The position numbers and the translations under genes are program-made. DNA of 64,000 nt from Eledone cirrhosa (lineage: Eukaryota): NCBI GenBank assembly GCA_964016885.1, contig OZ024742.1:66340001-66404000 (forward strand), given 5' to 3'. Shown in pieces: positions 1,094 through 62,565 of the stretch. Within the stretch, counting starts at the first letter, position 1. Each line of letters opens with the position of its first letter. Under the pieces are notes generated by a model that worked only from the letters and a program-made list of their open reading frames with translations, was not told the DNA's origin and searched no databases.

Positions 1094-1133
<40 letters not shown>

Positions 1134-1136
<3 letters not shown>

Positions 1137-1250
1137 AACGAGTAGGACCCCGACGGCTGAGCTCAAGCCGTTTCGACGGCTAATTCTGGACTAAGTATTG
1201 AGTTCTTTGGTGCGTTATGGTCCACTTGGTTCCTTATCACATTTCCTCCG

Positions 1251-1252
<2 letters not shown>
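1134..1252. mobile_element. Fragment of HHR family A with an internal strand switch, inserted in (TA)n
   Basis: GACCCCGACGGCTGAGCTCAAGCCGTTTCGACGGC (minus-sense HHR half) joined at CTAA to the plus-sense 3' tail TATTGAG...GGTGCGTTATGGTCCAC also seen at 51001-51057. Confidence 0.75.
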
Positions 1253-2173
<921 letters not shown>

Positions 2174-3228: not shown

Positions 3229-3308
<80 letters not shown>

Positions 3309-3449
3309 CTGCGTGTGTGTGCGTATATACATACATACGTACACACACGCGCCCACACACAGACACACACACACACACACACATATATATATTTATATAT
3401 TTATATATTTATATATATATAGACAATGATATAATTCACCATTTTCAAC

Positions 3450-3803
3450 AGTAAATACATTATTTATTTCGGTCTACCCGTGTTTCATCCCCTTTTACTA
3501 TTGCTCAGAATATCCTTATAAAGAAATTGGCAGACATAGATTATATTAACATCGGAGTAGGACAGCCGACAATACTACGTAGAACATTTTTTATGAACAG
3601 TACCGTTAAATAATTCTGACAAATCTAACATTCCATAACCTTAGAAAAACTTTCTTTACAAATTGCGGCTGGAGCATGTGGTTAAAGAATACATTGATCG
3701 TTATATATATTATTGATCTTGATGATTTCTTTATAAGGATATCGTGAGCAATAGTCTAAGGGCTTGAAACACGTGTAGATCAAATAAATAATGTATTAAC
3801 TGG
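3450..3803. repeat. Inverted repeat (~3450-3528 / ~3724-3803), PLE pLTR-like foldback
   Basis: AATACATTATTTATTTCGGTCTACCCGTGTTTCA...CCTTATAAAGAAAT is the diverged reverse complement of ATTTCTTTATAAGG...TGAAACACGTGTAGATCAAATAAATAATGTATT. Confidence 0.7.
3713..3783 (+). ncRNA. Type I hammerhead motif (C3->U), palindromic stem III
   Basis: UUGAUC UUGAUGA ... GAAAC ACGU GUA GAUCAA, then AATAAA at 3783-3788. Stem I is 6 bp perfect; stem II is weak. Confidence 0.6.
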
Positions 3804-3975
3804 TAAATTATTTTGTTGTTGCTATATGCTCTGTGATTTAAATCTAAGAAAACCGCAAGTATACCAACTGGGATTACCCTTGAAATATCTCTCATTATTC
3901 TGGATATAAAAAAAAAATACGTTTGAGCGTTAAATAAATATCTGAACGCTATACTGTTGTTTTATCAATATATAG

Positions 3976-4025
<50 letters not shown>

Positions 4026-4190
4026 ATATATATATATATTTATTAAAATTTGCTCTACGGTTCTTATATATTTGATGTATATTTATCCTTATCGAGCCCT
4101 CTTTGGATTTTAGTCTTCAAATTTATTATTATTACTATATATATATATATATATATATTTGTGTGTGTGTGTGTGTGTGTGACACACACG

Positions 4191-4266
<76 letters not shown>

Positions 4267-4269
<3 letters not shown>

Positions 4270-4416
4270 AAGAAAGTGTGGACCATAACGCACCAGAATA
4301 CTCGATACTTAGAGTAGTAGAGTGGGCAATAGGAAAAGAGTTAGGACCCCGACGGCTGAGCTCGGATCTAGCTGTCGAAACAGCCGGAGCTCAGACGTCG
4401 GGCCCCCGACTCTTTT

Positions 4417-4420
<4 letters not shown>
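4267..4420. mobile_element. Family A mini-foldback in (TA)n
   Basis: GGACCATAACGCACC...AGGAAAAGAG...GACGGCTGAGCTC followed by inverted GAGCTCAGACGTC...CTCTTTTCCTA. Confidence 0.75.
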
Positions 4421-4486
<66 letters not shown>

Positions 4487-4487
4487 C

Positions 4488-5237
4488 ATGAAATATATGG
4501 AGAATAGAAATGGCTGTGTAGTTGCTATTTAAAGTAACTTAAAATGCAGTGGGAATACGAAGAAAGCAAGAACAGGAGGGTGAGGGGTGTCATCATCAGT
4601 TGTCTACTGGGGGTCTAGGATATTTCTACGCTTTAAAGACAAGATACCACTTCACCCCAAGGCGTAAATAACTGGAAAAGTTATTGGAAAAACGAAGGAA
4701 AGAGGGAAGGAAAGCAAAGGGGGAGAAAAGAGAAACAATAACAAAACAACGAAAAAACCCCACAAACCGAGCAATATGCGAGCAACTATAGGTGGGAAAT
4801 CCAAGACCACTCGATAATAGAACTTAAATTCGAGACTGAGTAATCGAGAGACACCAGACACACGTCTGATGGCAGCAGTTGTAAGTATGACGAGAACTGC
4901 TAAACGGTCAGATGAGGGGGTGAAAGTGAGAGGGAGAAAAGGAGAGGAAGAAAGTGGAGTAAGAGTAGATAGGGAGAAAGGAAGGGGAAGAAAGAGGGAG
5001 GAGAGTAGAAGGTAGCGAAATAGGTAGGTAGAAGGGGGAGAAAAGAATGGCCACAGCGAAAAACATGATGAAATATATGGAGAATAGAAATGGCTGTGCA
5101 GTTGCTATTTAAGGTAACTTAAAATGCAGTTGGAATACGAAGAAAGCAAGAACAGGTGGTGTTATTGGTGGTGGTGGTGGGGGGGGGGGGTCCTCATCAG
5201 TTTGTCTACTGGGGGTCTAGGATATTTCTACGCTTTA
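4488..5237 (-). repeat. Partial direct tandem repeat, period about 580 bp (4488-4635 / ~5068-5237); pLTR-like
   Basis: ATGAAATATATGGAGAATAGAAATGGCTGTG...TCATCAGTT...GGATATTTCTACGCTTTA occurs twice. Shares the TAAAGCG..GAAATA...CTGATGA layout with the repeat at 1-1062. Confidence 0.8.
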
Positions 5238-5828
5238 TCCATTCATGTGGGCCTCTTCTAGATAGTTCATTGGGTGTTCAAATTATTATAAAGTTTTGAA
5301 TAGAAAATGTTTAATTAATATGAGTTCATAATTAAAATTTAGCGATCTGTTTATAGTATTATACTTGAAATATCAATATATCAATTGTTATTTCAATTCA
5401 GCTTTGAAACTGGAGCTGGCACGTTATACGAAATAAATATATTTGTTTTAGGTTTCTGATAACCTGAATATCACTGGTTCATGATTTTTACGATCATAGA
5501 ACATTTTTGGGCATATTTTCTTTGATATCGGGAAATAAAATGAGTAAATGTACTTTCATGGCATAGATAGGAGGCTGGATGATGTTCGTTGATGTAAAAT
5601 AATTAACTCTGTATGTTTCTATGAAATATAATTTACTAACCATAATCGACTAACATTTATTTCTGTCTGGTGGACATACCACCGTGTACATCCTTGATAG
5701 CAAGTAATGTATATTAGCAACACGGTACATTAATATCATCTGGCAGACACACACATATATACATATATATATATGTAAATTTCAGTCGTCACTCTCGTGT
5801 GCGGATATAAATGTTATTTATATATGTG

Positions 5829-5882
<54 letters not shown>

Positions 5883-5886
<4 letters not shown>

Positions 5887-6033
5887 TTTGAAGCATAGAG
5901 TTACGTCCCTTTATGATCTGAGTTCAAACCCAGCCGAGGTTAACTTTGCCTTTCATCCTTACGGGGTCGATCAAATAAAGTACCAGTAATACGCTGGGTA
6001 ATTGCTGGCCTTGTGCCAACAGTAGAAACAATT

Positions 6034-6036
<3 letters not shown>
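5883..6036 (+). mobile_element. tRNA-derived SINE with Meta-like core, 5' truncated
   Basis: GAGTTCAAA (B-box) ... CTTTGCCTTTCATCCTTACGGGGTCGAT...AAGTACCAG...GGCCTTGTGCC; matches the copy at 37918. Confidence 0.8.
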
Positions 6037-6068
<32 letters not shown>

Positions 6069-6224
6069 GCAAAAGGGGGAATATTTCCATTCAAATTAAA
6101 TATTATGGATAAAAAGAAAAAGTGAAAAAGCAGAAAAATATATTCATTAAATATTATTTTTTCTTTAATCCGACAGAATAAATACTTTTATAATTGTTAC
6201 ACTAGGTGGATTTATATTTGGCCA

Positions 6225-6265
6225 AATGTAGCCGGTTTCGATTGGTATCAGTCTTATCAAACATT
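6225..6265 (-). ncRNA. Degenerate hammerhead with U3-A8 core; cleavage triplet mutated to GCU
   Basis: Minus: AAUGU UUGAUAA GACUG AUAC CAAUC GAAAC CG GCU ACAUU. Confidence 0.5.
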
Positions 6266-9659: not shown

Positions 9660-12626
9660 AATATGTGACAATGCTCCTTACATGCAAACAAACATAAAAA
9701 AACCTCACTCCTCACCAACAAAGAGTGAAAAATAAAATACAGACGATATTTGGTAGCAGTAGAACCAGAACTCTTCAATAATTGAGAGCTGTTAGCGAAA
9801 AACGCCGATACCTGAAGAAGGTAGATGAGAGAAAACTGCTTAATAAAAGATTCAGAAAAACCAAACATCTATAGAGATATGAAGAACAAAATAATAAGTG
9901 TCACTGAGGCCCCATCCCAGAAAGACATAGATTCCTTTTGGAGAAAAATATGGGGTGAACAGAAGAATTTCAACCAAGATGCAGTGTGGCTGAAAGAAAT
10001 CCGAAAGAACTATTGCTCCTACACTACCACAAAAACATACGAAATAAGTGAGGGTACTCTTGAGACTGTGATAGGAAAACTCCAAGATAGGAAAGCACCA
10101 GGAAGAGACATGATTGTCGGGTGCTGGTACAAAAAACTGATATTATATCTATCGGAGGTATCTTACTGACCTCTACCAATAAGTTCTTAAGGAAGATACA
10201 CTTATACCAGAATGGTTGACATTAGCACAAACATGACTGGTCCCTAAGAATAAAGACACCCACTTGGCAAAAAACTACCGACCCATTGCATGCCAGAACC
10301 TGATGTATAAGATGTATACAGCCTGCCTTAACCTATTCCTCCAAGATCACTGTGAAAATAATAACATCATCACAGATGAACAAACAGCTAGAAAGAAAGG
10401 GGTTTGGGGATGTGCTGAACAACTCCTAATCAACAAAACTGCGATGTCGGAGGTGCGACAACATAGGAGGAATATGGCTACAGTCTGACTGGACTACAGG
10501 AAAGCTTTCGATTCTGTTCCCCACTCTTGGATGATAGAGGCCATCCAGCTTGCTAAAGTCCTAGACATTATTATCAGAGCCATAGAGAAGCTGTCTTCTT
10601 CTTGGTCTACTATCCTAAGGTTAAAGACAGAGAGGGAGGACTCTATTTTCATTGATAACATAAAATATCGAGGGCTATATTTCAGGGAGACAGTCTCTCT
10701 GTGATATTATTCATCTTGTCATTAAGCCCCTTGTCCTTTCTGCTCAAGAAATGTGAAGGATAATCATTGGCTCACAGGAGGACAGAAATACAAACCTTTC
10801 TTTGTGGATGATCTGAAGCTCTATGCCAGGAACATAGATCGGATGCAGAAAAATCTTGACCTGGTTACAGCGTTCTCAAAATATATAGGAGTTTGGCCAA
10901 AGGATAATGGAGTTTGGCCAAAGGATAATGGAGTTTGGCCAAGATAAATGCTCATATATAACTGTAAAGCGGGGAAAAACAACAACCCAATCTAGCAACA
11001 TTGTCATCAATGGCCTAACTGTTTCACCAATATCTGACGAGGAGTACTTCAGATACCTGGGGATAGATGAGACCATATCCTATAATGGTATCTGTAATAA
11101 GGAATGCGTAACCAGGGAATACTAAACCCGATCAAGAAAGATTTGGTCATTGGAACTCTCTGCGCAAAACAAAATGCGTTTGCTGTGTCTGTCCTAACAC
11201 CAACGTTTGGAATACTCAATTGGATGATAGACAAAATCCGAGCAGTTGATGTTGGAACTCGAAAAATACTAAACAGCACCGGAAACTTCCACATCAACAG
11301 TTACATTGACCGCTTTTACTTGAAACATAAGCAGGGAGGCAGGGGCCTAACATCAGACTAGACAGCATTTGAATGTCGCATCATATCCCTCCGACAACAC
11401 CTACGAATCTCGAAGCGTAGGAGCCCGTCTCTCGAGCAAGTCTATCTGCATGAAACAGATAAGATCATGAAAGTTGGGAAGGAACTCCTCTAGAGATATT
11501 CCCTGTGTGATAATCAAAAACTCACACCCAGGGATGTCACTCAGCAGTATCGCAGTGAATCCATGGATGAAAAACTGCATGCTTATCACCAGAAAATCAT
11601 GTATGGATATGTTGCCAGGAAGCTCCAGAGTGGGAGTAATATAGATAAGGAAAGTAGTCTATCTTGGACCAACAACCGCTATATTGGCTTCCACTTTGAA
11701 GTATTCGCTTTTGCAATCCAAGAACAGGAAATTAATACGAAATACCTGATTCAAAATAGAGATAGGGATGCAGGCAAAACACCTAGATGTGATAACAAGT
11801 GCAGACTCTGCAGAACTAACATCGAATATATCACCCATGTCATCAGCAGCTGTCCAAAGATGTCATCGTTGTACTATCTACCTATGAGACATGATGTAGT
11901 GGCCAAAACACTGTACAATGCAATCCGTAGAAAAGATAGCCCCGATAATAAACACATTGAAAGCTACAGCAATGTGGAAGACATCCATGTCCATAATATG
12001 AAACAGTACTGGTGGAATGTTCCAGTAAAAACCCCAATAAAATGCAGGCAAAACAGACCAGATATTATGATATGGGACAGGGAGAAGAAAGCATGCACAG
12101 TAGTGGAAATAGGTGCCCAGCAGATGCCAATATAATATCAAAGATTAGCGAAAAGGAAAATATTTATGCAGAACTGATGAGAAATCTGCAGATACTCCAC
12201 CCTGATTACACCTTCAGATTTATACCTGTGATTTATGCACTGCGATTTATGCACTGGGGTATGTTAGTAACTGCCTCAATACAAATCTTGAGAAGCTAGG
12301 CTTCAGAGAAACAGAAAGAACACAACTAGTTAGGAAATTACAAGTACGATCCATTAATGGAACAGTTAAAATATGTAAAACATTCCAAAAATGTTGCATC
12401 TAATAACTGCACCTAATAACTGAACATGTACAGATACAAATCATATACACATGCACACATACAACTCAAAACATACACATACACATATACAATAACATTC
12501 ATATCTACACATGCATGCATACATTATCTACCTAGTTGATGTTGCGTAAATTCCAATGTAAGAGTCTTGTGTCTATGTTAGAAACCGACTCTCTCTCTAT
12601 TGTGAAATTATAAAACCAGAAGAACA

Positions 12627-12680: not shown

Positions 12681-12683
<3 letters not shown>

Positions 12684-12883
12684 CGGAAGAGTTGTGGTAA
12701 GGAACCAGATGGACCATAACGCACCAGAGAACTCAATACTTAGGGTAGTAGACTGGGTAATAGGAGAAAGTATGACCTCGACGGCAGAGCTCAAGCCGTT
12801 TCGACGGCTATTTCTGGACTAAAGTTTTAGTCCAGATAAAGCTGTCGAAACGGCTTGAGCTCTGCTGTCGGGCTCATACTTTC

Positions 12884-22785: not shown

Positions 22786-23398
22786 TAATATATATATGTA
22801 TGTATATATATATATATATATATTAGTTTAGCGAGGTTTTTTATATGAAATCGTGTGTCGAAACAGATATTGTTATATTTGGGAAGGGTCATATTTGCGT
22901 AATATTGCCAGAATTAATAACAGAACACACTCACTGTTTGGTTGGTTTTCGCTTCTCGCTGTCTTTTATATCTGCGATCTAACTTACTCGGTCCTCAGTG
23001 TTGCCATTGACTGACCGGCGGTCAAAAATAATACAGATACAATATAGACACAAACACATATATATAGTTTACATAATTTACATAAATCTTTCGTTGCACA
23101 TCTGCAACATCGTCAGTGGTGTTATATTCATTGTTCCTCCTGTTGTGTTGTATGTCTACGCCATTTTTTTATTCAGTCTGTCTATATATTTATTTATTTA
23201 TTTGCTTGTTTGTTTATCTTATTTTATATTGTCTTCTTTGCGCATGCGTTTGCGTGTGTGTATAGTGTTATGTGTGATGTGTAACTAGTGTGTATAGTGT
23301 TGTGTCTGCTGGGTGACTAGTGTGTGTTTATGTGCTTGTTGTTATTGTGCTTGTGTATGTATTTATTTATCTTATTTTATTTTATTTTATTTACTTAT

Positions 23399-24739
23399 TT
23401 ATACTTCTCTTAGGTCAGTGTTGTTTGTTTGGGTGTTGTTGTTGTTCCACTCATTCTTTCTGTTTAGCTTTGGTCTTCTAATTACTATTTCACTGGCCTC
23501 TCTGATTTGCCTATCTGCTGGGTCATTCCTATGTTTAGATATTATTCTAATTTCTATGTTGTCTATGTTACCGTCATGTTGTTGTCTAGCATGTTCGTAT
23601 AGTACTGACCCGTTTTTTCGTCCTTTTAGTTCCCCCCAGTGTTGGTCTATCCTTTCACCTATGCTACGAGCTGTCTCACCTATGTATGTTGTTGTCATGT
23701 TTCTGCAAGTACCCTCTGTACATCTTATGCTATAGACTAGGTTTCTAGTTTTACAGTTTATCCGGGGGTTCACCTTACATATGATACATTTCCTATTGGT
23801 ACAGTGGGTTTTCTTAAAAGGGTAGGTTTTGCTGATCAGGGATTTTATGGTGGTTCCTGGCTTTTCTACCACCTTTATTTTTAAGTGGGTCTTTCTCAGG
23901 GCCTTTCTACACTGGTTAGCTAATTTCCCTCCAGGGGTGGCGTCCACAAACATGACACTCTGATATCTCTGGTTGTTGTACCATGATGTGGCCTTCCCTA
24001 TCTTATGTCTAGCCCTATCTAAGCTATTCCATGATTTGCTCCTGTATAGTGGGCAAATTCCTTTCATGTCCAGTTCTATGAGGGTCTTATACTTTTCCAT
24101 GGCTCCTTCGTATACTCTGACTCTGTCTCTTTGGTTATAGCCAGAGAACTGCATGCGGTTGATGAAGTGTTGGATGTGTCCTTCCATTTCTGTTGGGTCG
24201 CACATGCTGGACACATTCTTCATCACTCGTACCAAATCTGCGATCAGAATATTAAACTTAGCACTACTGGACATTGCTGAGTGTTTGAGTATCAGGTATT
24301 TGGAGGCCATGGGTTTAGCATAGTGTGAGTGGAGAATTTGGGCTCTCTCGTCTATAGTGTTAATCCAGAGTTCTGTGTCTAATACAAGTAGTCTATTGTT
24401 AGGGTGTTTGGAAGGGAAGTCGATAGTTACAGTTATACTCTGGTGTATGGAATTAGCTATCTGCTGGATGCTTTCCATCGTGCTACGTTCTAAATAAAAC
24501 TTGTTAGTGCTCTCTAGTGGGGGTGTTCTTATAACTATATTGATATCGTCTACATAGCAAGAGTACATGATGAGGTCTATGGAGCTTTCATTAAGGAGAT
24601 CTTTAAGTCTCCTTTCCCACCATACCATGAAAAGGTTGGCAACATCACCAGCTATGCTGACGCCGATGGCTGCTCCCTCGTTTTGGGTGTAGATTTTCTC
24701 ATTGAACTTAAATATGTGGTCCTTTAGGGTAGTTTTGAT
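23399..24739 (-). CDS. PLE polyprotein C-terminal part: RT motifs 4-7, thumb, Cys-rich linker, GIY-YIG endonuclease; open frame truncated at the 5' end
   Basis: The frame extends 37 codons upstream of the tracked ATG (IKTTLKDHIFKFNEKIYTQNEGAAIGVSIAGDVANLFM), then YVDD, LDTELW, HYAKPM, SGY, CTNRKCIIC, NLVY..C...C..YIGETAR..ERIDQH, EA, LN. Confidence 0.9.
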   Translation of the reverse strand: MKTTLKDHIFKFNEKIYTQNEGAAIGVSIAGDVANLFMVWWERRLKDLLNESSIDLIMYSCYVDDINIVIRTPPLESTNKFYLERSTMESIQQIANSIHQSITVTIDFPSKHPNNRLLVLDTELWINTIDERAQILHSHYAKPMASKYLILKHSAMSSSAKFNILIADLVRVMKNVSSMCDPTEMEGHIQHFINRMQFSGYNQRDRVRVYEGAMEKYKTLIELDMKGICPLYRSKSWNSLDRARHKIGKATSWYNNQRYQSVMFVDATPGGKLANQCRKALRKTHLKIKVVEKPGTTIKSLISKTYPFKKTHCTNRKCIICKVNPRINCKTRNLVYSIRCTEGTCRNMTTTYIGETARSIGERIDQHWGELKGRKNGSVLYEHARQQHDGNIDNIEIRIISKHRNDPADRQIREASEIVIRRPKLNRKNEWNNNNTQTNNTDLREV

Positions 24740-25100
24740 AAACTGTAAAACTAGAAACGTAGTCTATAGCATAAGATGTACAGAGGGTACTTGCAGAAAC
24801 ATGACAACAACATACATAGGTGAGACAGCTCGTAGCATAGGTGAAAGGATAGACCAACACTGGGGGGAACTAAAAGGACGAAAAAACGGGTCAGTACTAT
24901 ACGAACATGCTAGACAACAACATGACGGTAACATAGACAACATAGAAATTAGAATAATATCTAAACATAGGAATGACCCAGCAGATAGGCAAATCAGAGA
25001 GGCCAGTGAAATAGAAATTAGAAGACCAAAGCTAAACAGAAAGAATGAGTGGAACAACAACAACACCCAAACAAACAACACTGACCTAAGAGAAGTATAA
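24737..25100 (+). pseudogene. Inverted duplicate of the GIY-YIG coding segment
   Basis: INCKTRNVVYSIRC...YIGETARSIGERIDQH; differs from the minus-strand copy by two residues. Confidence 0.85.
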
Positions 25101-25621
25101 ATAAGTAAATAAAATAAAATAAAATAAGATAAATAAATACATACACAAGCACAATAACAACAAGCACATAAACACACACTAGTCACCCAGCAGACACAAC
25201 ACTATACATACTAGTCACACATCACACATAACACTATACACACACGCAAACGCATGCGCAAAGAAGACAAAATAAAATAAGATAAACAAGCAAATAAATA
25301 AATAAATATATAGACAGACTGAATAAAAAAAATGGCGTAGACATACAACACAACAGGAGGAACAATGAATATAACACCACTGACGATGTTGCAGGTGTGC
25401 AACGAAAGATTTATGTAAATTATGTAAACTATATATATGTGTTTGTGTCTATATTGTATCTGTATTATTTTTGACCGCCGGTCAGTCAATGGCAACATTG
25501 AGGACCGAGTAAGTTAGATCGCAGATATAAAAGACAGCGAGAAGCGAAAACCAACCAAACAGTGAGTGTGTTCTGTTATTAATTCTGGCAATATTACGCA
25601 AATATGACCCTCCCCAAATAT

Positions 25622-25755
<134 letters not shown>

Positions 25756-26326
25756 TTTAAATGGAATAGAATGAAACGAAATTTCATTTCTCACTCTTAA
25801 TACGGCACTTACTTAAATGTAAGTATGTATACGTACATACATATATGTATACAGACGTACAGTAGTATGTATATATATACATACATGCACACATATATAT
25901 ATGCACGTATCGGTTTACCGAACATTTATTATAATGCTCGGTTTGTTTGTTTGTGAACAAACAAACAGCCCGAATTACGCCGTACAGGGTTTAGGCAACC
26001 ACGTCACCTTTTTGGTCAACACTGACACAGGAATGATGTACTAGTTTCAAGCTTATTAGCTATCGTCAGCATCGTATATCTTCCTGCCAGATGGTTGAAC
26101 GGCTGAAAGTATATACTTTCCTTATGCATATTAACTCACTCGATATGCAAATTAGGCTGCTCAGCCGTTAATATGCATAAGGAAAGTATATAAACCGAGC
26201 ATTATAATAAATGATCGGTAAACCGATACGTGCATATATATATGTGTGCATGTGTGTATATATATACATACTACTGTACGACTGTATACATATATGTATG
26301 TACGTATACATACATACATGCTTACA
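25756..26326 (-). mobile_element. Non-coding HHR-bearing element, family B, with inverted arms (~25816-25944 / ~26192-26326)
   Basis: Homologous to 49369-49930; flanked by (TA)n; extra internal inverted repeat ~26110-26192. Confidence 0.75.
26035..26073 (-). ncRNA. Minimal type I hammerhead (family B)
   Basis: Minus: GAUG CUGACGA U AGCU AAUA AGCU U GAAAC UA GUA CAUC. Confidence 0.7.
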
Positions 26327-26393
26327 TATATATTTATATATATATACACACACATATATATATATATACACATATATATATATATATACACAC

Positions 26394-43856: not shown

Positions 43857-44440
43857 CACGAACCAAGATGTTTGCCTTATTTATGTAAACAAACCTCTAC
43901 ATATCCTATAATATTTATATTGAAAACATGTGCAAAAACATTAGCGTTTGTTGCTAAATCTATATATTCCTGTGCTCTTTACATTTTAACATTACAGTAT
44001 GTACATCTAATACCAATGACACTCATCATCGTTATTCTTTCTCAACTAACCACAGAATTGACATATAAATATTAAGTCATTATCATGTACATATATTCAA
44101 ATAAATACACACACACACTCTCTCTCACTCGTCGTAGCTAACGCACACACGGACACACACAAACGCACAAACACACACACACATATATATACACATTCAC
44201 AAACACATACACACACGCACACACGCACACACACACACACGCACGCACACACACACATATATATATATATACAGGGTGACCCAAAAAACTTCAACAACAT
44301 CGTAATAAATGTCTGTATACATTTATATATATATATATATATATATCCAGGGAGTGTAACCTGGAGTTAATGTAGGTTCACCCGGGAGAACACTCGATAT
44401 TTATGTTCACTTCAGTGTCGATGTGTATATAATCATAAGG

Positions 44441-44525
44441 GGTCTGACGAGTCGTGGGTTACAGACTCGGGCTAGATCGATGCAGATCGAACCTCGAGCT
44501 GATCAGTGGCGAAACGCGCGTCACC
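44441..44525 (+). ncRNA. Minimal type I hammerhead with ~50-nt insertion in loop II, followed by AATAAA
   Basis: GGU CUGACGA GUCGU [50 nt] GUGGC GAAAC GCGC GUC ACC; AATAAA at 44530-44535. Confidence 0.7.
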
Positions 44526-44589
44526 AACCAATAAACGTAATGAAAGAGCAACCAGTGGTCCTTGTTTTATTTAACTATATATATATATA

Positions 44590-45335: not shown

Positions 45336-45467
45336 AATATATATATATATATATATATACAGAAATAGCCGTCGAAACGCCTTGAGCTCTGCTGTCGGGG
45401 TCATACTTTTTCATATATATATATATATATATATAGGAAAAAGTATGACCCGACGGCAGAGCCCAAG

Positions 45468-48772: not shown

Positions 48773-48832
<60 letters not shown>

Positions 48833-48843
48833 GAACAAGTAAC

Positions 48844-48937
48844 ACCCCGACGGCTGAGCTCAAGCCGTTTCGACGGCTAATTCTTGACTGAATGAAAATT
48901 TATTCAGGTATTTAAATAGCCGAGCTTATCAAGGGGT
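48844..48937 (-). ncRNA. Type I hammerhead with U3-A8 core (family A)
   Basis: Minus: ACCCC UUGAUAA G cu CGGCUA...UAGCCG u C GAAAC GGCU UGAGCUC AGCC GUC GGGGU. Confidence 0.8.
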
Positions 48938-49331
48938 AATTCCATATATGGTCAAAGAGATAATCACCAGGATTGGTCACATCACAAGTTAGTAGTAAAT
49001 CTGTGATGTCAAATTGGTGGGGGAAGGGGTAGCTGAACCTGCCGTTAGGAGAAAAAGGGAGAGGGGGTGGAGTAGACCCATTCATGCGTTGGTAGTGCCG
49101 GCTACAGCTGGGTGTGAGGTCAAAGAAGATACTGGGGAGGGGGAGGGGGAGGAAGTCGAAACGGTAAGTAAAACAAAGAAGGGTAAAACTATAAAAAGTA
49201 CTAAGAGAGAAAAAAAATAATCAAAGTCTGGTTACTAAGACTTAAGTCTCTCGCTATTGCTGGGCTAAAAAAATACATAAATAAATAAATAAACAAATAA
49301 GTGAATAAAAGAATAGATAAATAAATAAAAA

Positions 49332-49368
<37 letters not shown>

Positions 49369-49371
<3 letters not shown>

Positions 49372-49926
49372 GTAAGTATGCATGTATACGTACATACATA
49401 TATGTATACAGACGTACAGTAGCATGCACATATTCGTTTTCATTTTGTTTCAATTTATCGTTTTCGGTATGCCTGACCGATTTAACTCACTCAATATGCA
49501 AATTAGGCTGCTCAGCCGTTAATTTTCATAAGGAAAGTATATACTTTCGAACGTTCAACTATCTGGCAGATGGGTAAACGGTGCTGATGATAGCTAACAA
49601 GCTTGAAACTAGTACATCGTTCCTGTGTCAGTGTTGAACAAAAAGGTGACGTGGTTGCCTTAACACCGTATGGCATAAATTCAGGCTGTTCAGTTTATTT
49701 ACAAACGAACAAAGCGACGTTATAATAAGCGCCGCTAAACTGATACGTGCATATATGTATGTGTACCTGTATGCATATGTATGTATATATGTATATATAT
49801 ATATATATATGTGCATGCTACTGTACGTCTGTATACATATATGTATGTACGTATACATGCATACTTACATTTAAGTAAGTGCCATACTAAGAGTGAGAAA
49901 TGAAATTTCGTTTTCATTTTGTTTCA

Positions 49927-49930
<4 letters not shown>
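49369..49930 (+). mobile_element. HHR family B element inserted into the (TA)n of the palindrome's left arm
   Basis: Absent from the right arm; homologous to 25756-26326; has its own inverted ends (AAATGTAAGTATGCATG... / ...CATGCATACTTACATTT). Confidence 0.8.
49577..49621 (+). ncRNA. Minimal type I hammerhead (family B)
   Basis: AACGGUG CUGAUGA U AGCU AACA AGCU U GAAAC UA GUA CAUCGUU; 7-bp stem I, palindromic ACUAGU stem III. Confidence 0.75.
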
Positions 49931-49963
<33 letters not shown>

Positions 49964-50437
49964 GAAGAATAAAAAATAAATAAAAATAAACTAGGTGGGA
50001 CGGAAATAAAGGGACCCTTAAACGAGGTATAAGTGCGTGTATCGTACGGTGACGGGTCAACAAAGGGGGGGGGGGGAAATACTAAAGAGACTACCACGCA
50101 ATAATAAAGGTTTCTACCCCAATCACAGGGCCAGCAACCACCCAGAGCAAGAAAGTAAACTAGTACGAGAATATAATTCAGGGTCCCGTAAAAAAAAATA
50201 CTCGTGCTAACTCTAAGGGTACCCTTAGAGTTAGCACGAGTTTACTTTCTTGCTCTGGGTAGTTGCTGGCCCTGTGATTGGGGTAGATACCTTTATTATT
50301 TCGTGGCAGTCTCTTTAGTATTTTGCCCCCCCCCCCTTTGTTGACCCGTCACCGTACGATACACGCACTTATACCTCGTATAAGGGTCCCTTTATTTCCG
50401 TCCCACCTAGTTTATTTTTATTTATTTTTTATTCTTC

Positions 50438-50475
<38 letters not shown>

Positions 50476-50872
50476 AATTTTTTTTTTTTAAATTTATTTA
50501 TCTATTCTTTTATTCACTTATTTGTTTATTTATTTATTTATGTATTTTTTTAGCCCAGCAATAGCGAGAGACTTAAGTCTTAGTAACCAGACTTTGCTTA
50601 TTTTTCTCTCTCAGTACTTTTTATAGTTTTACCCTTCTTTGTTTTACTTACCGTATTGACTTCCTCCCCCTCCCCAGTATCTTATTTGACCTCGCACCCA
50701 GCTGTAGCCGGCACTACCAACGCATGAATGGGTCTACTCCACCCCCTCTCCCCTTTTCTCCTACCGGCAGGTTCAGCTACCCCTTCCCCCCACCAATTTG
50801 ACATCACAGATTTACTACTAACTTGTGATGTGACCAATCCTGGTGATTATCTCTTTGACCATATATGGAATT

Positions 50873-50964
50873 ACCCCTTGATAACCTCGGCTATTTATAC
50901 CTGAATACATTTTCATTCACTCCAGAATTAGCCATCGAAACGGCTTGAGCTCAGCCGTCGGGGT
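50873..50964 (+). ncRNA. Type I hammerhead with U3-A8 core (family A); base of stem II mutated
   Basis: ACCCC UUGAUAA ccuc GGCUA...UAGCC auc GAAAC GGCU UGAGCUC AGCC GUC GGGGU. Confidence 0.7.
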
Positions 50965-51673
50965 CTTACTTGTTCCTATTACCCTCTCTACTACCCTAAG
51001 TATTGAGTACTTTGGTGCGTTATGGTCCACCTGGTTCCTTACCACATTTCCTTCGTTATATATATATATATATTTATCTCTTTATATCTCACCCCTCTCT
51101 CTCTCTCCCTCTCTATCCCTCCCACCCACTATGATCAATTTAATTCTCTTTAACTCACTACATTCCACGAAATGAAGTCTGCTATCAAAACTGACCAAGG
51201 ATCCTTCCACCTCTACCCCTCCCTCCATCTCAGTTTGTCACTCTACTTCCTACCTCTTCCCCCCTTCCTCTCTCTCTATACTATTCCGTTTGTCCCCACC
51301 TTCTGATTCCTCTCTCTCTATACTAGTAAATACAATTCCAAATAAATGTTTTTCTCTATATATTAAGAATTATTTCAAGAGTAACTTACTCCCTATTTTG
51401 AAAATTTGGACTGTGAACAACAATTATAATTGAGTGGCTGCTATTTGCAGTATAGCAATATAAGGTTGCACTTACCAATGAAACGGTCGTAAATACCTGG
51501 ATAAAATCCTTCTCTTAATGCTTACCTGTGTTTTCTCTTTTATACTTTATACTCCAAGATTGAACGGAATCCTTACAAACTTGTGGAGTTATCCCTAACC
51601 GTACGTTGAAACCATACATGAAACTGGCTTTCTTAACCAAGAACTGGATCACAATAAGCAATGTTTTGCTTCT

Positions 51674-51756
<83 letters not shown>

Positions 51757-52732
51757 TATACATACATATATATACATGCATATATAGTTAGTTGTAACTA
51801 TATATAATTAGTTACAACATGATATATGCAGGCACTTAAGTTTCGTTGGATTATACACCCTAACTCATTCCTCCCGTTATATAAAAATAAAATAAAATGT
51901 TTACCTCCACAGGTTGATTTGAGGTGTTTAGAAAATAGGCGAGAGTTCCTCAGGGGCAGGTATTTTCAAATTTAGCTATAAATAAACAAGTCTTTTAGAT
52001 AGTGTAAAACGAGGTAACTATGAAAAGACCATCCAGGTTTTGAACTTGTGCAAAGTTAGTAATTCAAAGAAATTAAATTCCTTGAAATCAAAATTACTGT
52101 CTGGTCTATACCATTTTCTCAGAATGAATTTCGATACATGTGGGCAGCAACTAAAACAATAAAGGCGGGTATTTAAGCAGCGTTTCTCAGAAGGCAGCTG
52201 TGAGAGTATATTTCAGTTTGAACCCAATACCCACCAAATTGCCAAGCATTATGTTTTAAAAATCAGCATCATAAGTTACAAGCAATATAATCATACACGA
52301 ACACACACATCCACAATGTTCACTGAAAAGCAAACGCCTTCAAACACATCCACAATGTTCACTGAAAAGCAAACTCCTTCATACATATCTACAACTACAT
52401 GCAAATATGGGTAAGTATTCACTATTGTCTGTTTCTATATTTTCGAGTTTTCTCTGACGTATTCTTATAAATTACAACACATACCAAATTGCATACAATT
52501 TTCTTGAAGCGCACATATGAATTCAGAGATAGGCAAATGTAAATATCATCGCATTATGGATCAATCTTTGCATAATCCAATCAGTGTTATGATTTCTACT
52601 TATTGATCTCCCGATTAATATAAGTTTCACCATGCACAAACAATGGCATTTCGAAATATCAATGTATGAATATTTTATATATCAATTTAATTATCTAATA
52701 CACATTTTGTCTATGTACACACACACACACAA

Positions 52733-52763
<31 letters not shown>

Positions 52764-52814
52764 CGTGTGTGTGTATGTGTGCAGCGTGTGTGTGCTCGTT
52801 TCTGTATGATACAT

Positions 52815-52903
<89 letters not shown>

Positions 52904-54377
52904 CATAGAGATATTGTATTATAGTGAGGCATTGTATTATAGTGAGAAAGACAAATTGGTTTTTGGAAGCTGTTGGAATAAAAGGAAAATCTGATGCTGT
53001 GATTCTTTAGAAATTTAACTTGAATTCACCAACCTATATATTTTAATTATCTGCACATTATTCAATTTTCAATATTTGTCTTCTGAGAAAATGCAATGTT
53101 GATAAATTTCCAAAAATATGCGGAAAATTAAATTTTCCTTTTAGCGACAATTCTTTTTTAATATAAAATTCTGAAATAGCTTATTATAAATAAAGAAAAT
53201 ATAATAAACCTATACATATCGTTGCTGGTTCAATGATGGTCGTCATTATACTACCTGCTCAGAAGATCATTTGTAGATTGAGCAAGATGATTGAGAGAGA
53301 ACTTTAAAAAATAAATAAATGACGAAACGCAAAAGTATTTTTTCATAAAATAAATACACTGTAGGTGAAATAGATTAGCCATATTACAGTTACTTAATAA
53401 TTGGAATGCATAACTCCTCTATGGAAGCGGAATTATAAGGTTACTCACGTATGTGCTGCATATACACAGATAATTATTTCATATTTAGACTGCTTAGAAA
53501 ACGAATAAATATATTAAATGACTACAATCACAAGCTCTAATATTATACAATTTAGTACTTTCATTGTATGATACAACACTGTGTGATACGTTACATAGGT
53601 TACATAATTCGATGTGGTTTCTTAGATAATATACATGCCTTATAATGCGGAACTAACAAGTTCCTCAAATTTGTGAAGGTTATTATTTGTTCACTTGTCA
53701 TGCGCATATATATACATCATATTATATGTGTATATACGAAAACTGTGTGTATACATACATACAACAACACAGTCACATACACATCTATACTGTGCATTTA
53801 GACATATAAGACATTATATTCATATCCCTATATATTTATATACATAAATTTGCAAATTTATATGAATATGCTTATATATGTTTTTATGTTTATATATATT
53901 TATATAGATATTTGGACGTGTATATAAATATGCACAAAATATACGTGTGTATGTACGTGTGTATGTATTTACGTTTCAAATCTGGGCGCAAATTACAAGA
54001 AGCACTCGAAATATTAATTTCTTTTGGGAGAGAGAATAGAAATACGTTTTAATCCAGTGACTATTCATAAGCAATTCATTAGTTGCGCGAATTTGAACAA
54101 AGAATACATCATTGGATTGAAACATATACTTACAGATTTAGTCATGCTTACGTTCAGCTTAGCAGCCTGAAGATCTGAGACACATTACAGTTTCATCCAA
54201 TAAACATTTGCTATTCAATCGCCCGTGAATATGAAATTTGCATAAGGCAAAAGCTGTGAGCAGGAATGCTTCTGAAATAGACATCGCTCAATAAACGGAT
54301 GTTTCACAAAATATTCCTTTGATTAATTATATTTATAGATTATTTATGTATGCGCATATATATATATATATGTGTAT

Positions 54378-57367
54378 AAAATTGGTCGTTTTGGAAGCCT
54401 CATCAATGCAGATGGGTATATCTCAGGGTAACAGAATCAGGTGGTAATGAGAGAGATGTAAGAGGAAATGTAAAATGATACGTATAGGATGTAGCAGAAC
54501 GTAGGAAAGAGTGTAAAAATAATAACATGAGATAGAGTTACCTTGGAAGTGATTTAATTGTCCCTATATTTCGGATTTTGCATCCATGAACTGGGGGTTT
54601 TACGAGGGGGAAAGTTTTAGAGGAACAACACGTGGCCTCTGTTGTCTATCGTGTGTGTACAACTGAACTACTCTGTAGGGTGCCCGTGCGCGCGGAATAG
54701 CTGCGGCCAGACAAAGGTCGAGGTAGTTCCTCTGTACTAGAGTAGTGGGATGGTGATGTGTCAGTGCATACGCATCTTCGCTGTCAATTTCTTATATTCA
54801 GTCTTTGATACTGGCAGGTGTGTTGTTGTATTGGTAGTCTGCCTGATTGTTGTTTGTTTGTCGGTGGATGGTGGACACGCTATACACACAATAACAATCG
54901 TTCGATTGCTACTGTGTGTATTGTTGTTGTTTCATTTGTTTACACCAGCCATCTCGTCTCACTTCTCTCGGATCGGTGATTTATTTATGGTCCGAGGCTT
55001 CCTTGATTCTTAAAGTGCCAACGTTGCGTTCTGTCGCTAACACTGTGACGTCTTTGTTTCCGAATTTGGTTATGTGTTTCCGGAAAGACGAGGCCCTTGT
55101 GTTGACGTGCTCCTTGATCTGGACATGAAGTGGCCGGATGGTGCTACCGATGGAGAAGTCGTTGCACTTGTCACATTCTACCTTGTATACGACGTACGTG
55201 CGTAAGCAACAGTTCGTTTGGCGCATTGGACAGTTGCTGAGGGAACACGCGTCAACCAATTTATCGGGTTTCCTGGAGAGGCATCTCCGTAGGGAGGAGC
55301 CCGAGTGGGCCAAGTGGATGTCGAGGCCCTCTCTCCGTATGGCCCTGCGGATAGCATTGGTGGTTTTTTCGCCTAGGTGCGGGATTTTAAAGAAGCACTT
55401 GCCTTGGGTGTTTCTCTGCCTCTTGCGCCTGGTGTCTCTTACTCTGCTTGTAAATGATGCTGCGTATCCGTTCGTCTCCAGCACCCTGAGGAACCGCTTG
55501 GTATGGGCGACACTACACACGTGATCACTGCATCTATTTTTAATCCACGTGATCTCGTTCGTGATGTACCATCTTTTAGCACTGTTAGGGAGGACAGATT
55601 TGTAGTGGACGAACACGTCCCTGCTGGGTGCCTTGCGGTAGAAGCTGGTCTTGATCCCTCCCTGGTCCGTGATGTTGATTCGGAAGTCGAGGAGGGCAAG
55701 GGACCCCTCGTCGTTGGGGCGTTCAACACTGAAGTCAATATTCTCATCGATGTTGCTGAACAACTCGTAAATCCCGTTCGCCATCTCCTGGGAAGATGTG
55801 AGGATGAGGATGTCGTCCACGTATCTTGAGAAGAAGAGAACGGCGTTGGGGTGGCAGGTGTTGAGTGCATTGCGTTCCAGGCTGTCCATGTACGAGATCT
55901 AGCACACCCGACAGGCTTGAGCCCACGGGTAGTCCTGAGCTCTGTCGGTATGTTTGGTCGAGAAAATTGAAATATGTGTTGTCAACGACGACGGATAGGA
56001 GCTGGTGGATGTCAGTGAAGGTGAGCCCGAAGCAGTGTAGGTTGGTAGATTGAACACGTTCTATCAGTATATCAACGGCCGGGAGCGCCGGGACCGAAGT
56101 GTGAAGAGCGGCCACATCAAGGCTGAAGGCCAACCTGTTAGCCATTCGGGTGTCGGGATCCATTTGATGTAGGCGATCCAACACCACCTCGGAGCTGTTT
56201 AAGTGTCCCGGGAAGGTGTCCAGTAGGAGTTTAAGCATTCTGGCTAGGAGCCATGAAATTTTGTAGAGCGGTCCTTCCACGCTCGATACAATAGGCCTGA
56301 TCTTCAGGTCGGATCCCTGTTTGTGTGTTTTCACGAAGTGATAGAAGGCGGGTAGTCTGCTGTTCCTCGTGAGGACGTTGTTTCTAAGCTTCTTGGGGAG
56401 CTTCCGCCGGTCGCAATTGTTGCTCCAGGCAGCGTTGATGTGCTCCTCGATCTGCGCGGGAGTGATCCCTGTGACTTTAGAGTAGGGGCTGGCATCGTTA
56501 AGATGTTGGAGGGCTAGGGTGTTGTAGGCCTCTCTGCTTATGACGCAGAATTCTTTTCCTTTGTCGGAGGGGAGGTAGATGAGGTTCCTCGATTTTAGGT
56601 TGGAGAAAGTAGTGAGTTGAGATTTAGTTAGGTTGTGTGTTGTGCGTCTATGTGTGTGTTTATGTAGGATATCAGAGATGGAGTATTTCAACATGATGAG
56701 TTTAGTTTCGACTTCGTGGCTGGTGGGTTGTGGAGGGGGGGTGCAGTTGGTTGCCGTGGTGGTAAGTGGGGAACTCGAGGCGAGTTGAGTGGGTGCTGTC
56801 ATTTTCCATGGTTCTGTTGATGGCGGTCACCCATTTCAGTTGGTGAGCGGCTCGGCAGAAGTTGGTTTCGAAAGTTGAGTTCAACTCTGTTGTCGAGTCG
56901 CTGTGAGACGATGAACTTGGGTCCGAGGAGTAGAAGTTCCAGCTCGTCGTTCGTGAGGGTGCTGGTTAGGTCGGTGACAAGGTGCGTCGCATAGTTCAGG
57001 TGTGGCTCTGTGTTGGTGGATGCGGCGGTGGCAGTTGTTATGTTCTTGTTTTTTGTGGAGTTTAAGCAAGGTCCACTCATATTTCTGCTTGAGTTTTGTT
57101 TCGTGTTGGACTCTGGAGTGGTAGCACTGGTCGATTGCTTTTGTGGTTTTAAGGAGCAAGTCGCCGGGTATTAGTGTTAAGCGATGTGTATTTTTACACA
57201 CTTTCCTACGTTCTTCTACACCCTATACGTATCATTCTACACTTCCTCTTACATCTCTCTCATTACCACCTGATTCTGTTACCCGGAGATTTACTTATCT
57301 GTATTGTTGACGCTTCCAAAACGACCAATCTTATTATTCCACAATGCTTCAAGCAAACTTTAACACT

Positions 57368-57370
<3 letters not shown>
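54378..57370 (-). mobile_element. Near full-length Penelope-like element (RT + GIY-YIG), frameshifted, with inverted terminal segments (~54381-54521 / ~57189-57329), in (TA)n
   Basis: LLLGPKF, PSDKG, FYHFVKTHK..IRPIVSS, FSLDVAALHTSVP, QSSGLPVGSSLS, RYVDDIL, LLDFRI, FYRK, NGY, VVYKVECDKC..IGST.RPLH..IKEH. Confidence 0.92.
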
Positions 57371-57409
<39 letters not shown>

Positions 57410-57578
57410 GGAGGAGGAAACCCAAACATTGGGTCTCCTCCACACCCTCTCTCTCTTTCTCCTACTGGCAGATTCAGCTACCCCTTCCCTCCACAAATTG
57501 CCATGATAGAATTATTATGTCTCAACAACAAACTTTTGACCAATCCTTGTGACAATAACTTTTACCATATATGGAATT

Positions 57579-57674
57579 ACCCCTTGAGAAGCTCGGCTAT
57601 TCAAATACCAGGATAAAAATGTTCATTTAGTCCAGAATTAGCCGTCGAAACGGCTTGAGCTCAGCCGTCGGGGT
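57579..57674 (+). ncRNA. Type I hammerhead with U3-A8 core (family A) within insert 57407-57688
   Basis: ACCCC UUGAGAA G cu CGGCUA...UAGCCG u C GAAAC GGCU UGAGCUC AGCC GUC GGGGU. Confidence 0.8.
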
Positions 57675-57684
57675 CCTACTCGTT

Positions 57685-57744
<60 letters not shown>

Positions 57745-59153: not shown

Positions 59154-59316
59154 CGAGGGAAAAGTGGTAAGGAACCAGGTGGACCATAACGCACCAAAGT
59201 ACTCAATACTTAGGGTAGTAGAGTGGGTAATAGGAGTAAGTAAGACCCCGACGGCTGAGCTCAAGCCGTTTCGACGGCGAAACGGCTTGAGCTCAGCCGT
59301 CGGGGTCTTACTTACT

Positions 59317-59321
<5 letters not shown>
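59152..59321. mobile_element. Family A foldback with perfect 44-bp arms (59230-59273 / 59278-59321)
   Basis: ATAGGAGTAAGTAAGACCCCGACGGCTGAGCTCAAGCCGTTTCG-acgg-reverse complement. Confidence 0.9.
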
Positions 59322-59397
<76 letters not shown>

Positions 59398-60704: not shown

Positions 60705-60897
60705 TATATATATCTGTAAATACATATACATATATATATATATATACACACATATATATATATATATCTGTAAATACATATACTTCGGCCCTTGAAAAAA
60801 TTGATTCCACTTCATTCACTCTCATCTCAGGAACAGTTTTGGATAGCGCTAGTTCGTAATTTAAATTCAAGAATTTTATATTCTTCGAATGAAAAGA

Positions 60898-60980
60898 ACC
60901 TTCTGACGAGAATCTTTCTTTGCAACGAAGGCCGTATGGTCTCCGTTTATTTTTGGGATTCGAAACCGATCGGTAAAGGT
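60898..60980 (+). ncRNA. Type I hammerhead ribozyme, array copy 1
   Basis: ACCUU CUGACGA GAAUCUU [loop with internal hairpin] GGGAUUC GAAAC CGAUCG GUA AAGGU. Confidence 0.9.
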
Positions 60981-61382
60981 AACTATAGTAGGTAAAGTCA
61001 ATTTTTTAAAATTTATTTTGAAACTTTTTCATTATTTGCTAAACCTTGTTTATATATGTTCTGGCTCGTTAATTTATTAACCTGCCATTGAACCACATTG
61101 GCATTTGGTTGGACAATACATGCGTCCCTTAGCGCCTTGTGCGTGAAGGAACACATATCCTATTATTACTACTCTCCTCTATTGTTGAGAGACAAATTGG
61201 GTCGTTCCGACTGCTGCTAGTGATAGTTGCGGCCGGTTTGACCTACCTCCCTCTGCCTCTATCTTTACTTCGGCCCTTGAAAAAATTGATTCCACTTCAT
61301 TCACTCTCATCTCAGGAACAGTTTTGGATAGCGCTAGTTCGTAATTTAAATTCAAGAATTTTATATTCTTCGAATGAAAAGA

Positions 61383-61465
61383 ACCTTCTGACGAGAATCT
61401 TTCTTTGCAACGAAGGCCGTATGGTCTCCGTTTATTTTTGGGATTCGAAACCGATCGGTAAAGGT
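61383..61465 (+). ncRNA. Type I hammerhead ribozyme, array copy 2
   Basis: Same sequence as 60898-60980. Confidence 0.9.
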
Positions 61466-61867
61466 AACTATAGTAGGTAAAGTCAATTTTTTAAAATTTA
61501 TTTTGAAACTTTTTCATTATTTGCTAAACCTTGTTTATATATGTTCTGGCTCGTTAATTTATTAACCTGCCATTGAACCACATTGGCATTTGGTTGGACA
61601 ATACATGCGTCCCTTAGCGCCTTGTGCGTGAAGGAACACATATCCTATTATTACTACTCTCCTCTATTGTTGAGAGACAAATTGGGTCGTTCCGACTGCT
61701 GCTAGTGATAGTTGCGGCCGGTTTGACCTACCTCCCTCTGCCTCTATCTTTACTTCGGCCCTTGAAAAAATTGATTCCACTTCATTCACTCTCATCTCAG
61801 GAACAGTTTTGGATAGCGCTAGTTCGTAATTTAAATTCAAGAATTTTATATTCTTCGAATGAAAAGA

Positions 61868-61950
61868 ACCTTCTGACGAGAATCTTTCTTTGCAACGAAG
61901 GCCGTATGGTCTCCGTTTATTTTTGGGATTCGAAACCGATCGGTAAAGGT
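61868..61950 (+). ncRNA. Type I hammerhead ribozyme, array copy 3
   Basis: Same sequence as 60898-60980. Confidence 0.9.
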
Positions 61951-62352
61951 AACTATAGTAGGTAAAGTCAATTTTTTAAAATTTATTTTGAAACTTTTTC
62001 ATTATTTGCTAAACCTTGTTTATATATGTTCTGGCTCGTTAATTTATTAACCTGCCATTGAACCACATTGGCATTTGGTTGGACAATACATGCGTCCCTT
62101 AGCGCCTTGTGCGTGAAGGAACACATATCCTATTATTACTACTCTCCTCTATTGTTGAGAGACAAATTGGGTCGTTCCGACTGCTGCTAGTGATAGTTGC
62201 GGCCGGTTTGACCTACCTCCCTCTGCCTCTATCTTTACTTCGGCCCTTGAAAAAATTGATTCCACTTCATTCACTCTCATCTCAGGAACAGTTTTGGATA
62301 GCGCTAGTTCGTAATTTAAATTCAAGAATTTTATATTCTTCGAATGAAAAGA

Positions 62353-62435
62353 ACCTTCTGACGAGAATCTTTCTTTGCAACGAAGGCCGTATGGTCTCCG
62401 TTTATTTTTGGGATTCGAAACCGATCGGTAAAGGT
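62353..62435 (+). ncRNA. Type I hammerhead ribozyme, array copy 4
   Basis: Same sequence as 60898-60980. Confidence 0.9.
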
Positions 62436-62505
62436 AACTATAGTAGGTAAAGTCAATTTTTTAAAATTTATTTTGAAACTTTTTCATTATTTGCTAAACC
62501 TTGTT

Positions 62506-62565
<60 letters not shown>

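Follow-up and report, generated by a model that had tools for sequence, protein, structure and literature searches.

The window analysed here is a stretch of 64,000 nt of Eledone cirrhosa DNA (assembly GCA_964016885.1, contig OZ024742.1, positions 66,340,001 to 66,404,000 of the forward strand), in which several insertions of one mobile family carry a hammerhead ribozyme motif or a part of it. With a probability of about 0.65, comparison of the copies points to a Penelope-like element (PLE) of the Hydra clade whose terminal repeat holds a type I hammerhead, with A fixed at core position 8 (A8), U or C at position 3 depending on the subfamily (U3 or C3), and likely functioning as a weak self-cutter that is dispensable for most insertions. 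The kind of element and the U3-A8 variant were already known; what is likely added here is a large lineage with a mismatched C3-A8 core and a record of breakpoints left by probable cleavage.

Three motifs with ACCCC/GGGGU as stem I, GAAA, a 6-bp stem III and the GUC triplet were confirmed at the coordinates and on the strands proposed in the initial annotation of this DNA:

48844..48937, minus strand: full hammerhead of subfamily A (U3, U7, A8), core UUGAUAA, predicted cut between 48849 and 48848.
50873..50964, plus strand: full but decayed hammerhead of subfamily A (U3, U7, A8), core UUGAUAA, predicted cut 50959/50960.
57579..57674, plus strand: full hammerhead of subfamily B (U3, G7, A8), core UUGAGAA at 57584-57590; stem I 57579-57583/57670-57674; G10.1 at 57591 with C11.1 at 57646; GAAA 57647-57650; stem III 57650-57655/57663-57668; predicted cut 57669/57670.

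The layout is that of a type I hammerhead, with all stems, GAAA and GUC, and a core that departs at position 8 and often at position 3; within the window, the proposed UUGANAA with varying N7 was found as UUGAUAA (48844, minus; 50873, plus) and UUGAGAA (57579, plus). The motifs had been taken as three full copies, but those at 48844 and 50873 are inverted arms of a single insertion and the three copies thus represent two insertion events. In the 50873 copy, G10.1 is replaced by C and one stem II pair is broken. The palindromic GAGCUC described for the stem III loop is present, although loop III comprises 7 nt (UGAGCUC). The hammerhead is the minimum-energy fold of 48844-48937 (z -2.57) and not that of the 57579 copy (z -0.54), which has copies 99-100% identical elsewhere in the genome. 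The partial copies listed at 1134, 4345, 12776, 45366 and 59246 also exist; all five hold the 3' half of the hammerhead only and stop short of positions 3-8, so they are uninformative on the core.

Exact-pattern matches were counted genome-wide (3.0 Gb), with a reversed control that gave 0 matches for every pattern. The 3' half of the hammerhead, in two versions, had 21,773 and 10,758 exact matches (over 32,000 in total), the tail of the element had 16,653, and the two versions of the 5' core context had 1,933 and 1,494, meaning that about 3,400 matches reach the core. With 1,933 core-pattern matches against 0 in the reversed control, the family is far beyond chance. In the first core context, C3 was present in 906 of the 1,933 matches with A8 retained, and UUGAUAA accounted for 344. 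Among 100 listed of the 1,494 matches of the second context, whose core types were tallied by hand, 32 were UUGAAAA, 19 UUGAUAA, 14 UUGACAA and 3 UUGAGAA, and C3 was found in 28 (25 CUGAGAA, 2 CUGAAAA), together with 3 G8 and 2 C8 cores. C3 was accompanied by G7 in 97/100 and 26/28 listed matches of the two contexts (123/128), whereas all four bases occur at position 7 in the U3 lineages. Overall, U3-A8 is found in about six of ten full-core matches and C3 with A8 in about four of ten. As A8 is nearly invariant while position 3 splits between U and C, A8 is a trait of the family and U3 is not; the proposed U3-A8 core therefore holds for the three copies of the window, but the idea of a uniformly compensatory core does not extend to the genome. 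Tabulation of positions 3 and 8, which the initial annotation had suggested, revealed no C3-G8 consensus: a pattern slightly shorter than the others gave 12 matches with G8, of which 2 were C3-G8, against 1,933 for the family pattern. This rejects the possibility that these are decayed copies of a C3-G8 consensus, and also sets the family apart from the canonical CUGANGA tabulated for the Hydra clade.

At the gathering threshold, Rfam produced no hit in the window. When 57540-57690 was searched with E values up to 10, 5 hits were obtained, none of them to a hammerhead model, and the best 150 of 199 hits in the window with E up to 1 were all driven by microsatellites. The claim that searches based on CUGANGA would miss the family was thus borne out for Rfam, but the canonical CUGACGA hammerheads of the window were missed too, so this blindness is not specific to U3.

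The parent element was found at locus L031, where (TA)n is followed by an inverted arm, a partial tandem repeat holding the hammerhead and then a coding frame, in agreement with the suggestion that a PLE frame should be sought near long copies. This frame (3184-5339, ~718 codons, in three pieces separated by two frameshifts) encodes reverse transcriptase (RT) and GIY-YIG domains, and lies between direct repeats at 1736-2639 and 5281-6181, with the hammerhead ~180 nt 5' of the ATG; a PLE is defined by this arrangement, in which partial tandem repeats with a hammerhead flank a single RT plus GIY-YIG frame. A protein search with the frame gave 266 homologues, the best 52% identical. Its motifs HSDKTG, RLRWR, CNCPDGSIC, CNLC and CKH match features of the Hydra clade when compared by eye with the text and alignment of PMC8557442. 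By these motifs, the C-terminal nuclease and the (TA)n targets, the family probably belongs to the Hydra-clade PLEs, and with thousands of genomic matches its description as a successful mobile family is upheld. Inverted 5'-truncated arms, an optional tail and (TA)n insertion sites were seen across the copies, and the PLE 3' ends fall into a short end (107/242 alignments) and a long end (79/242). These two 3' ends, the inverted arms and the (TA)n targets match the internal RT starts shown for an Anolis PLE, by analogy with which they are read here.

The starts of genomic copies are given relative to the predicted cut GUC/G, the first G after the cut being 0. For the breakpoint sample, tail matches were taken in order along contig C1 up to the 100th. 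Among these tail-anchored copies, 54/100 started at -45 to -35, within loop II, which in the 57579 copy corresponds to the following stretch:

57625..57635, plus strand: loop II stretch of the commonest starts, -45 to -35 from the cut; likely transcription start.

The cut site was read through in 79/100 copies, so uncut RNA was the template of most copies, and the core was reached in 8/100; these figures do not support the idea, implicit in the initial annotation, that the success of the family depends on an intact core. Starts at -1 to +1 were found in 7/100 copies, or 7 of the 34 starting within -33 to +35 (p 5.6e-4). The A residues at 57629 and 57625 (-41 and -45) stand in an initiator-like context. 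An untemplated G precedes A(-41) in 7/9 copies, compared to 25/93 elsewhere. Both features, together with the location of PLE transcript starts, lead us to read the loop II pile-up as the probable 5' end of the main transcript. Starts of PLE transcripts within the terminal repeat have been described (PMC6765202). A 3' splice site behind the loop II breakpoints finds no support, as no shared upstream exon was present at the junctions.

Short copies flanked by (TA)n were collected by searching for (TA)n directly before the 3' end, distinct places being counted by hand; this search covers starts within about 10 nt of the cut, and its gap limit disfavours the positions furthest upstream. In subfamily A (all 49 matches, in which two places separated by 61 bp possibly stem from a single event), 17/31 copies started exactly at the cut, 1 at +1 and none cleanly at -1. 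For subfamilies B and C, among the matches listed (100 of 240), 17/54 started at the cut, 0 at +1, 6 at -1 and 11 at +2, many of the latter via microhomology with the partner arm. Compared to a uniform spread over +4 to -2, the pile-ups at the cut site had p values of 4e-9 (A) and 1e-4 (B/C). Where the tail was readable, 9/10 exact-cut copies among the matches listed belonged to the C-type haplotype (C3). No comparable pile-up was detected at the foot of an equally strong competing hairpin (-14: 1/100 tail-anchored copies). As many truncated copies start exactly at the predicted cut, the RNA likely cut itself in the living animal, and these starts are likely fossil evidence of weak cleavage in vivo.

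These data are consistent with the following scheme. Transcription would start inside loop II (around -41), so that the main RNA would lack the 5' half of the ribozyme and thus be unable to cut in cis. Copying from two internal priming sites would run off the 5' end in loop II, producing the very common insertions of 60-140 bp. Only read-through RNA would hold the whole ribozyme, a minority being cut at GUC, and copying of the 3' cleavage product would give rise to the insertions that start exactly at GGGGU. As both priming sites lie 3' of the cut, efficient cutting would part them from the coding body at the cost of full-length copies, and weak cores and a competing fold may therefore have been tolerated or even favoured. 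Such a fold is available, since CGGCU and AGCCG are each present twice and allow a strand-swapped structure that hides GAAA. With respect to chemistry, the role of general acid has been proposed for the 2'-OH of residue 8 (PMC6257768).

Several observations weigh against a weak but real self-cutter. The predicted share of the active fold at 37 C was 0.001-0.03 in 6/6 copies, with values of 0.013-0.027 for A, about 0.006-0.007 for B and B', and 0.001 for C; this constrained calculation took neither tertiary contacts nor protein into account. Stalling of the RT could mimic cut-site starts, given that the cut falls at the 3' foot of stem III, and U3-A8 partners could cleave C-type RNA in trans. 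The short arms had no significant excess of starts at the cut (2/18, p 0.38, some very short arms being missed), microhomology with the tail may account for part of the G-before-A(-41) signal, and most samples were the first places on contig C1 and not random draws. Conservation of the 5' half (0/17) is circular, as the search patterns fixed most of its letters, and the root of the subfamily tree may lie in D or between D and F. From the literature, RNA-seq of the Anolis PLE, as presented in the available part of PMC11167929, gave no ends at its cut site, and a pairwise scan of a type III hammerhead, in the available part of PMC9901934, gave low activity for all changes in this part of the core except C3G/G8C.

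A rival reading would be that the ribozyme is vestigial in all subfamilies, that its sequence is kept as a promoter and RT-binding structure and that the GGGGU starts reflect stalling of the RT at stem III or at the G run, which we consider quite unlikely. The 79/100 copies made from uncut RNA, the rarity of the active fold in prediction and the prevalence of the C3-A8 lineage, the commonest in the sample (haplotype in 46/100), would all fit, as would the unaffected insertion of hammerhead mutants in vitro (PMC11167929, in the part available). However, a stall should leave C17 copied, whereas the 17 subfamily A starts lie just after the cut and none cleanly at C17, and decay of the CpG at the cut site, in ~3/33 A copies, is too low to account for the missing C17 starts. 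Stalling also predicts starts at -1 or inside the stem, absent in A, and a peak at the other hairpin, which was not seen. Furthermore, 16 copies found via their 3' side retain a 5' half that fits the hammerhead, with A8 in 15/16.

An unlikely possibility is that only the U3-A8 subfamilies cut, and that C3-A8 RNAs, inactive alone, are cut in trans by co-expressed U3-A8 RNAs within mixed dimers held by the palindromic loop III. The 3' halves of B and C are identical, loop III is self-complementary and the subfamilies overlap in age, while C3 extends stem I across the cut site with a predicted active fold ~five-fold lower. The share of exact-cut copies was also lower in B/C (17/54, among the matches listed) than in A (17/31, p 0.04), although p rises to 0.37 when -1 starts are counted. 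Against this, the C share among exact-cut copies (9/10 with a readable tail) is close to that of C among C and B overall (46 to 5), and exact-cut copies thus show no deficit of C; and the co-occurrence of C3 with G7 in 123/128 listed matches is not needed by a dead core, even if shared descent can explain it. This co-occurrence would also fit a rather unlikely reading, in which the CUGAGAA subfamilies cut by a shifted register: C3 would pair with G7 standing in for G8, the role of A9 would fall to A8, and A9 itself would be left as an extra residue before G10.1, which would constitute a natural hammerhead without N7. Such a core would have bridged the canonical and U3-A8 cores, and the breakpoints would be a fossil record of in vivo cleavage by a core rated nearly dead in mutational scans. 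Weak self-cutting remains our favoured explanation.

The history of the subfamilies was analysed with two trees, the first containing the 119 of 155 full-core copies that were long enough, and the second 30 of these plus 35 of 47 further copies (12 being too short or rearranged), with core columns masked. The second tree is a ladder D - F - C - B - B' - A, with C3 in F and C. The corresponding cores are U3 with A7 or C7 in D; C3,G7 in F and C; U3,G7 in B and B'; and U3,U7 in A. Private divergence was 0.028-0.033 in D, F and C, 0.018 in an early-C group of 5, and 0.014-0.016 in B, B' and A, the youngest. F and C are 17.5% apart, so that CUGAGAA persisted through roughly 11% change of the master. 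A letter of the tail also splits C from B, being T in 14/15 C3 copies and 2/2 C-lineage G3 copies, and C in 16/16 U3 copies, in a comparison that also held 2 copies with an unreadable core. The CUGAGAA copies thus represent a long-lived lineage that, on this sequence evidence, most likely gave rise to the U3 subfamilies of the window (B and A), and U3 would most likely have arisen in them from a C3-A8 ancestor, restoring the 3-8 pair. When copies were selected via their 5' side, seven subfamilies differed at 2/36 columns of the 3' half, compared to 93/185 in the flank plus loop II.

As separate observations on the C lineage, three copies (L168, L241 and L029) carry G3 (GUGAGAA), and L168 and L241, both without G10.1, may be a duplication. 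Five loci (L197, L083, L085, L138 and L370) have internal deletions between two AGCCGUCG repeats that remove GAAA and stem III. At L229 both arms end at the cut site with a 5-nt linker, and L398 consists of two head-to-tail pieces, each starting at the cut site. One extra G was present in 4/17 exact-cut B/C copies (among the matches listed) versus 0/17 in A.

A natural U3-A8 core is not new, contrary to what the initial annotation implied, as the following comparisons, drawn from the available parts of the papers cited, make clear. Perreault et al. (2011, PMC3088659) described natural hammerheads in which positions 3 and 8 covary to give U3 and A8, and stated that this form has in vitro activity; their examples, as far as that text goes, are few and scattered and include no C3-A8 form, unlike the family here. 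Cervera and de la Pena (2014, PMC4209133) described minimal U3-A8 hammerheads in the Cercyon PLEs of Schistosoma mansoni, with about 1,300 U3-A8 hits in Schistosoma PLEs, and these resemble the present ones in the type I hammerhead of the terminal repeat, U3-A8 and G10.1-C11.1. As in the Cercyon PLEs, copies are mostly single and truncated or in opposite-strand pairs. In the Cercyon PLEs, stem III is absent or minimal, whereas here it has 5-6 bp with a palindromic loop of 7-9 nt and loop II has ~40 nt; the family here also belongs to the Hydra clade and includes a large C3-A8 lineage, which the Cercyon text does not mention in its available part (PMC4209133).

With the Hydra clade described by Craig et al. 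(2021, PMC8557442), the family shares DKT, RW(R/K), the CxCx5C linker, and CxxC and CxH around a conserved E and N, as well as the (TA)n targets, the inverted truncated arm and the tail. The Hydra hammerheads in File S2 of that paper are all CUGANGA, whereas A8 is found here, and the 3' untranslated region (UTR) is longer here (repeat unit ~3.5 kb versus under 3 kb), as is the tail (80 nt versus 30-40 bp typically). The Anolis Poseidon PLE PAc (Frangieh et al., 2024, PMC11167929) is similar in its two internal RT starts, which give a tail, and its AT-rich targets. Its hammerhead is not needed for insertion in vitro and mutants still insert; it differs in having the canonical C3-G8 and, in the part of the paper available, no RNA ends at the cut, whereas here genomic breakpoints pile up. 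In the literature surveyed, at the level of titles and abstract openings, with incomplete coverage that excludes the variant-core supplements of PMC4209133 and PMC3088659, none reported a CUGAGAA PLE lineage, a natural N7-less core or cut-site PLE breakpoints.

The in vivo role of PLE hammerheads is in question, as one purified PLE does not need its ribozyme (PMC11167929, part available). As insertions that start at the cut site would record RNA cut in the germ line, the family offers a test of cleavage from genome sequence alone. It also provides a natural series of cores on one scaffold (UUGAAAA, UUGACAA, CUGAGAA, UUGAGAA and UUGAUAA), in which a core with a 3-8 mismatch reached over a thousand full-core copies; with it, the steps by which a tertiary pair undergoes compensatory change become directly assayable.

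Within the window, the two-armed insertion with the 48844 (minus) and 50873 (plus) hammerheads spans about 48831-51056. The insertions of the family are:

48831..50223, minus strand: left inverted arm of this insertion, with the short 3' end.
50239..51056, plus strand: its right arm, with 3' UTR, hammerhead and 80-nt tail, then (TA)n; its 3' end is the long one, located 97 nt downstream of the cut.
57430..57686, plus strand: 5'-truncated PLE insertion holding the 57579 hammerhead, in (TA)n; its 3' end is the short one, located 17 nt downstream of the cut.
1131..1253, both arms: small two-armed insertion, short arm -43 to +17 (minus) and tail-only arm (plus), no core.
4278..4420, no strand assigned: small two-armed insertion, older, with only the 3' half of the hammerhead.
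12681..12880, no strand assigned: small two-armed insertion of the D/F type, in which the top of stem III is U-U; each arm starts at -44, no core.
45360..45467, no strand assigned: two short fragments of the D/F type, located in (TA)n and lacking the core.
59158..59322, both arms: small two-armed insertion, tailed arm minus and short arm plus, no core.

The 48831-50223 arm is split by an unrelated insert of ~555 bp with inverted ends (49375-49929), and sequence related to this insert is found near 26053-26346.

A non-LTR (long terminal repeat) retrozyme, that is, non-coding head-to-tail tandem repeats each with a hammerhead (bioRxiv 10.64898/2026.07.22.740005, available part), was rejected, given the coding parent and the dispersed, mostly inverted pairs without tandem arrays. 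The PLE frame at 54981-57170 (minus) was rejected as the coding region of the family, to which it is foreign, because nucleotide comparison with the L031 frame gave no match and it is on the opposite strand to the 57579 copy. It is a frameshifted PLE of another family, with a DKG motif, YVDD and a GIY-YIG-like C-terminus, and an inverted copy of its 5' region lies at 54376-54521. Pfam assigned no family to three frames at 54981-57170, and two other frames gave only weak RT-related hits.

The remnant at 6225-6265, described as unrelated and carrying UUGAUAA, was confirmed as a member of a second family:

6225..6265, minus strand: decayed member of a minimal hammerhead family that is older than the first and unrelated to it, UUGAUAA, 5-bp stem II.

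This family has a palindromic CCGG stem III, with a GUA triplet in its relatives, and 276 candidates were found, 41 of them matches at 77-100%.

Other elements of the window include a 485-bp tandem repeat at 60781-62511 (plus; 3.6 copies, 100% identical) with a canonical CUGACGA hammerhead in each copy, at 60903, 61388, 61873 and 62358, with a palindromic CCGAUCGG stem III and a GUA site; this array is either retrozyme-like or a PLE terminal repeat array. A single canonical CUGACGA hammerhead-like motif with a palindromic CGCGCG stem III and GUC lies at 44435-44535 (plus). Another PLE piece at 22867-25629, with a frame at 23399-24763 (minus) and an inverted arm 97-99% identical, contains CUGACGA and CUGAGGA motifs in both arms. 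Finally, a 213-aa frame at 11494-12135 (plus), with a zf-RVT match under the Pfam cut-off, is probably the end of a long interspersed nuclear element (LINE).

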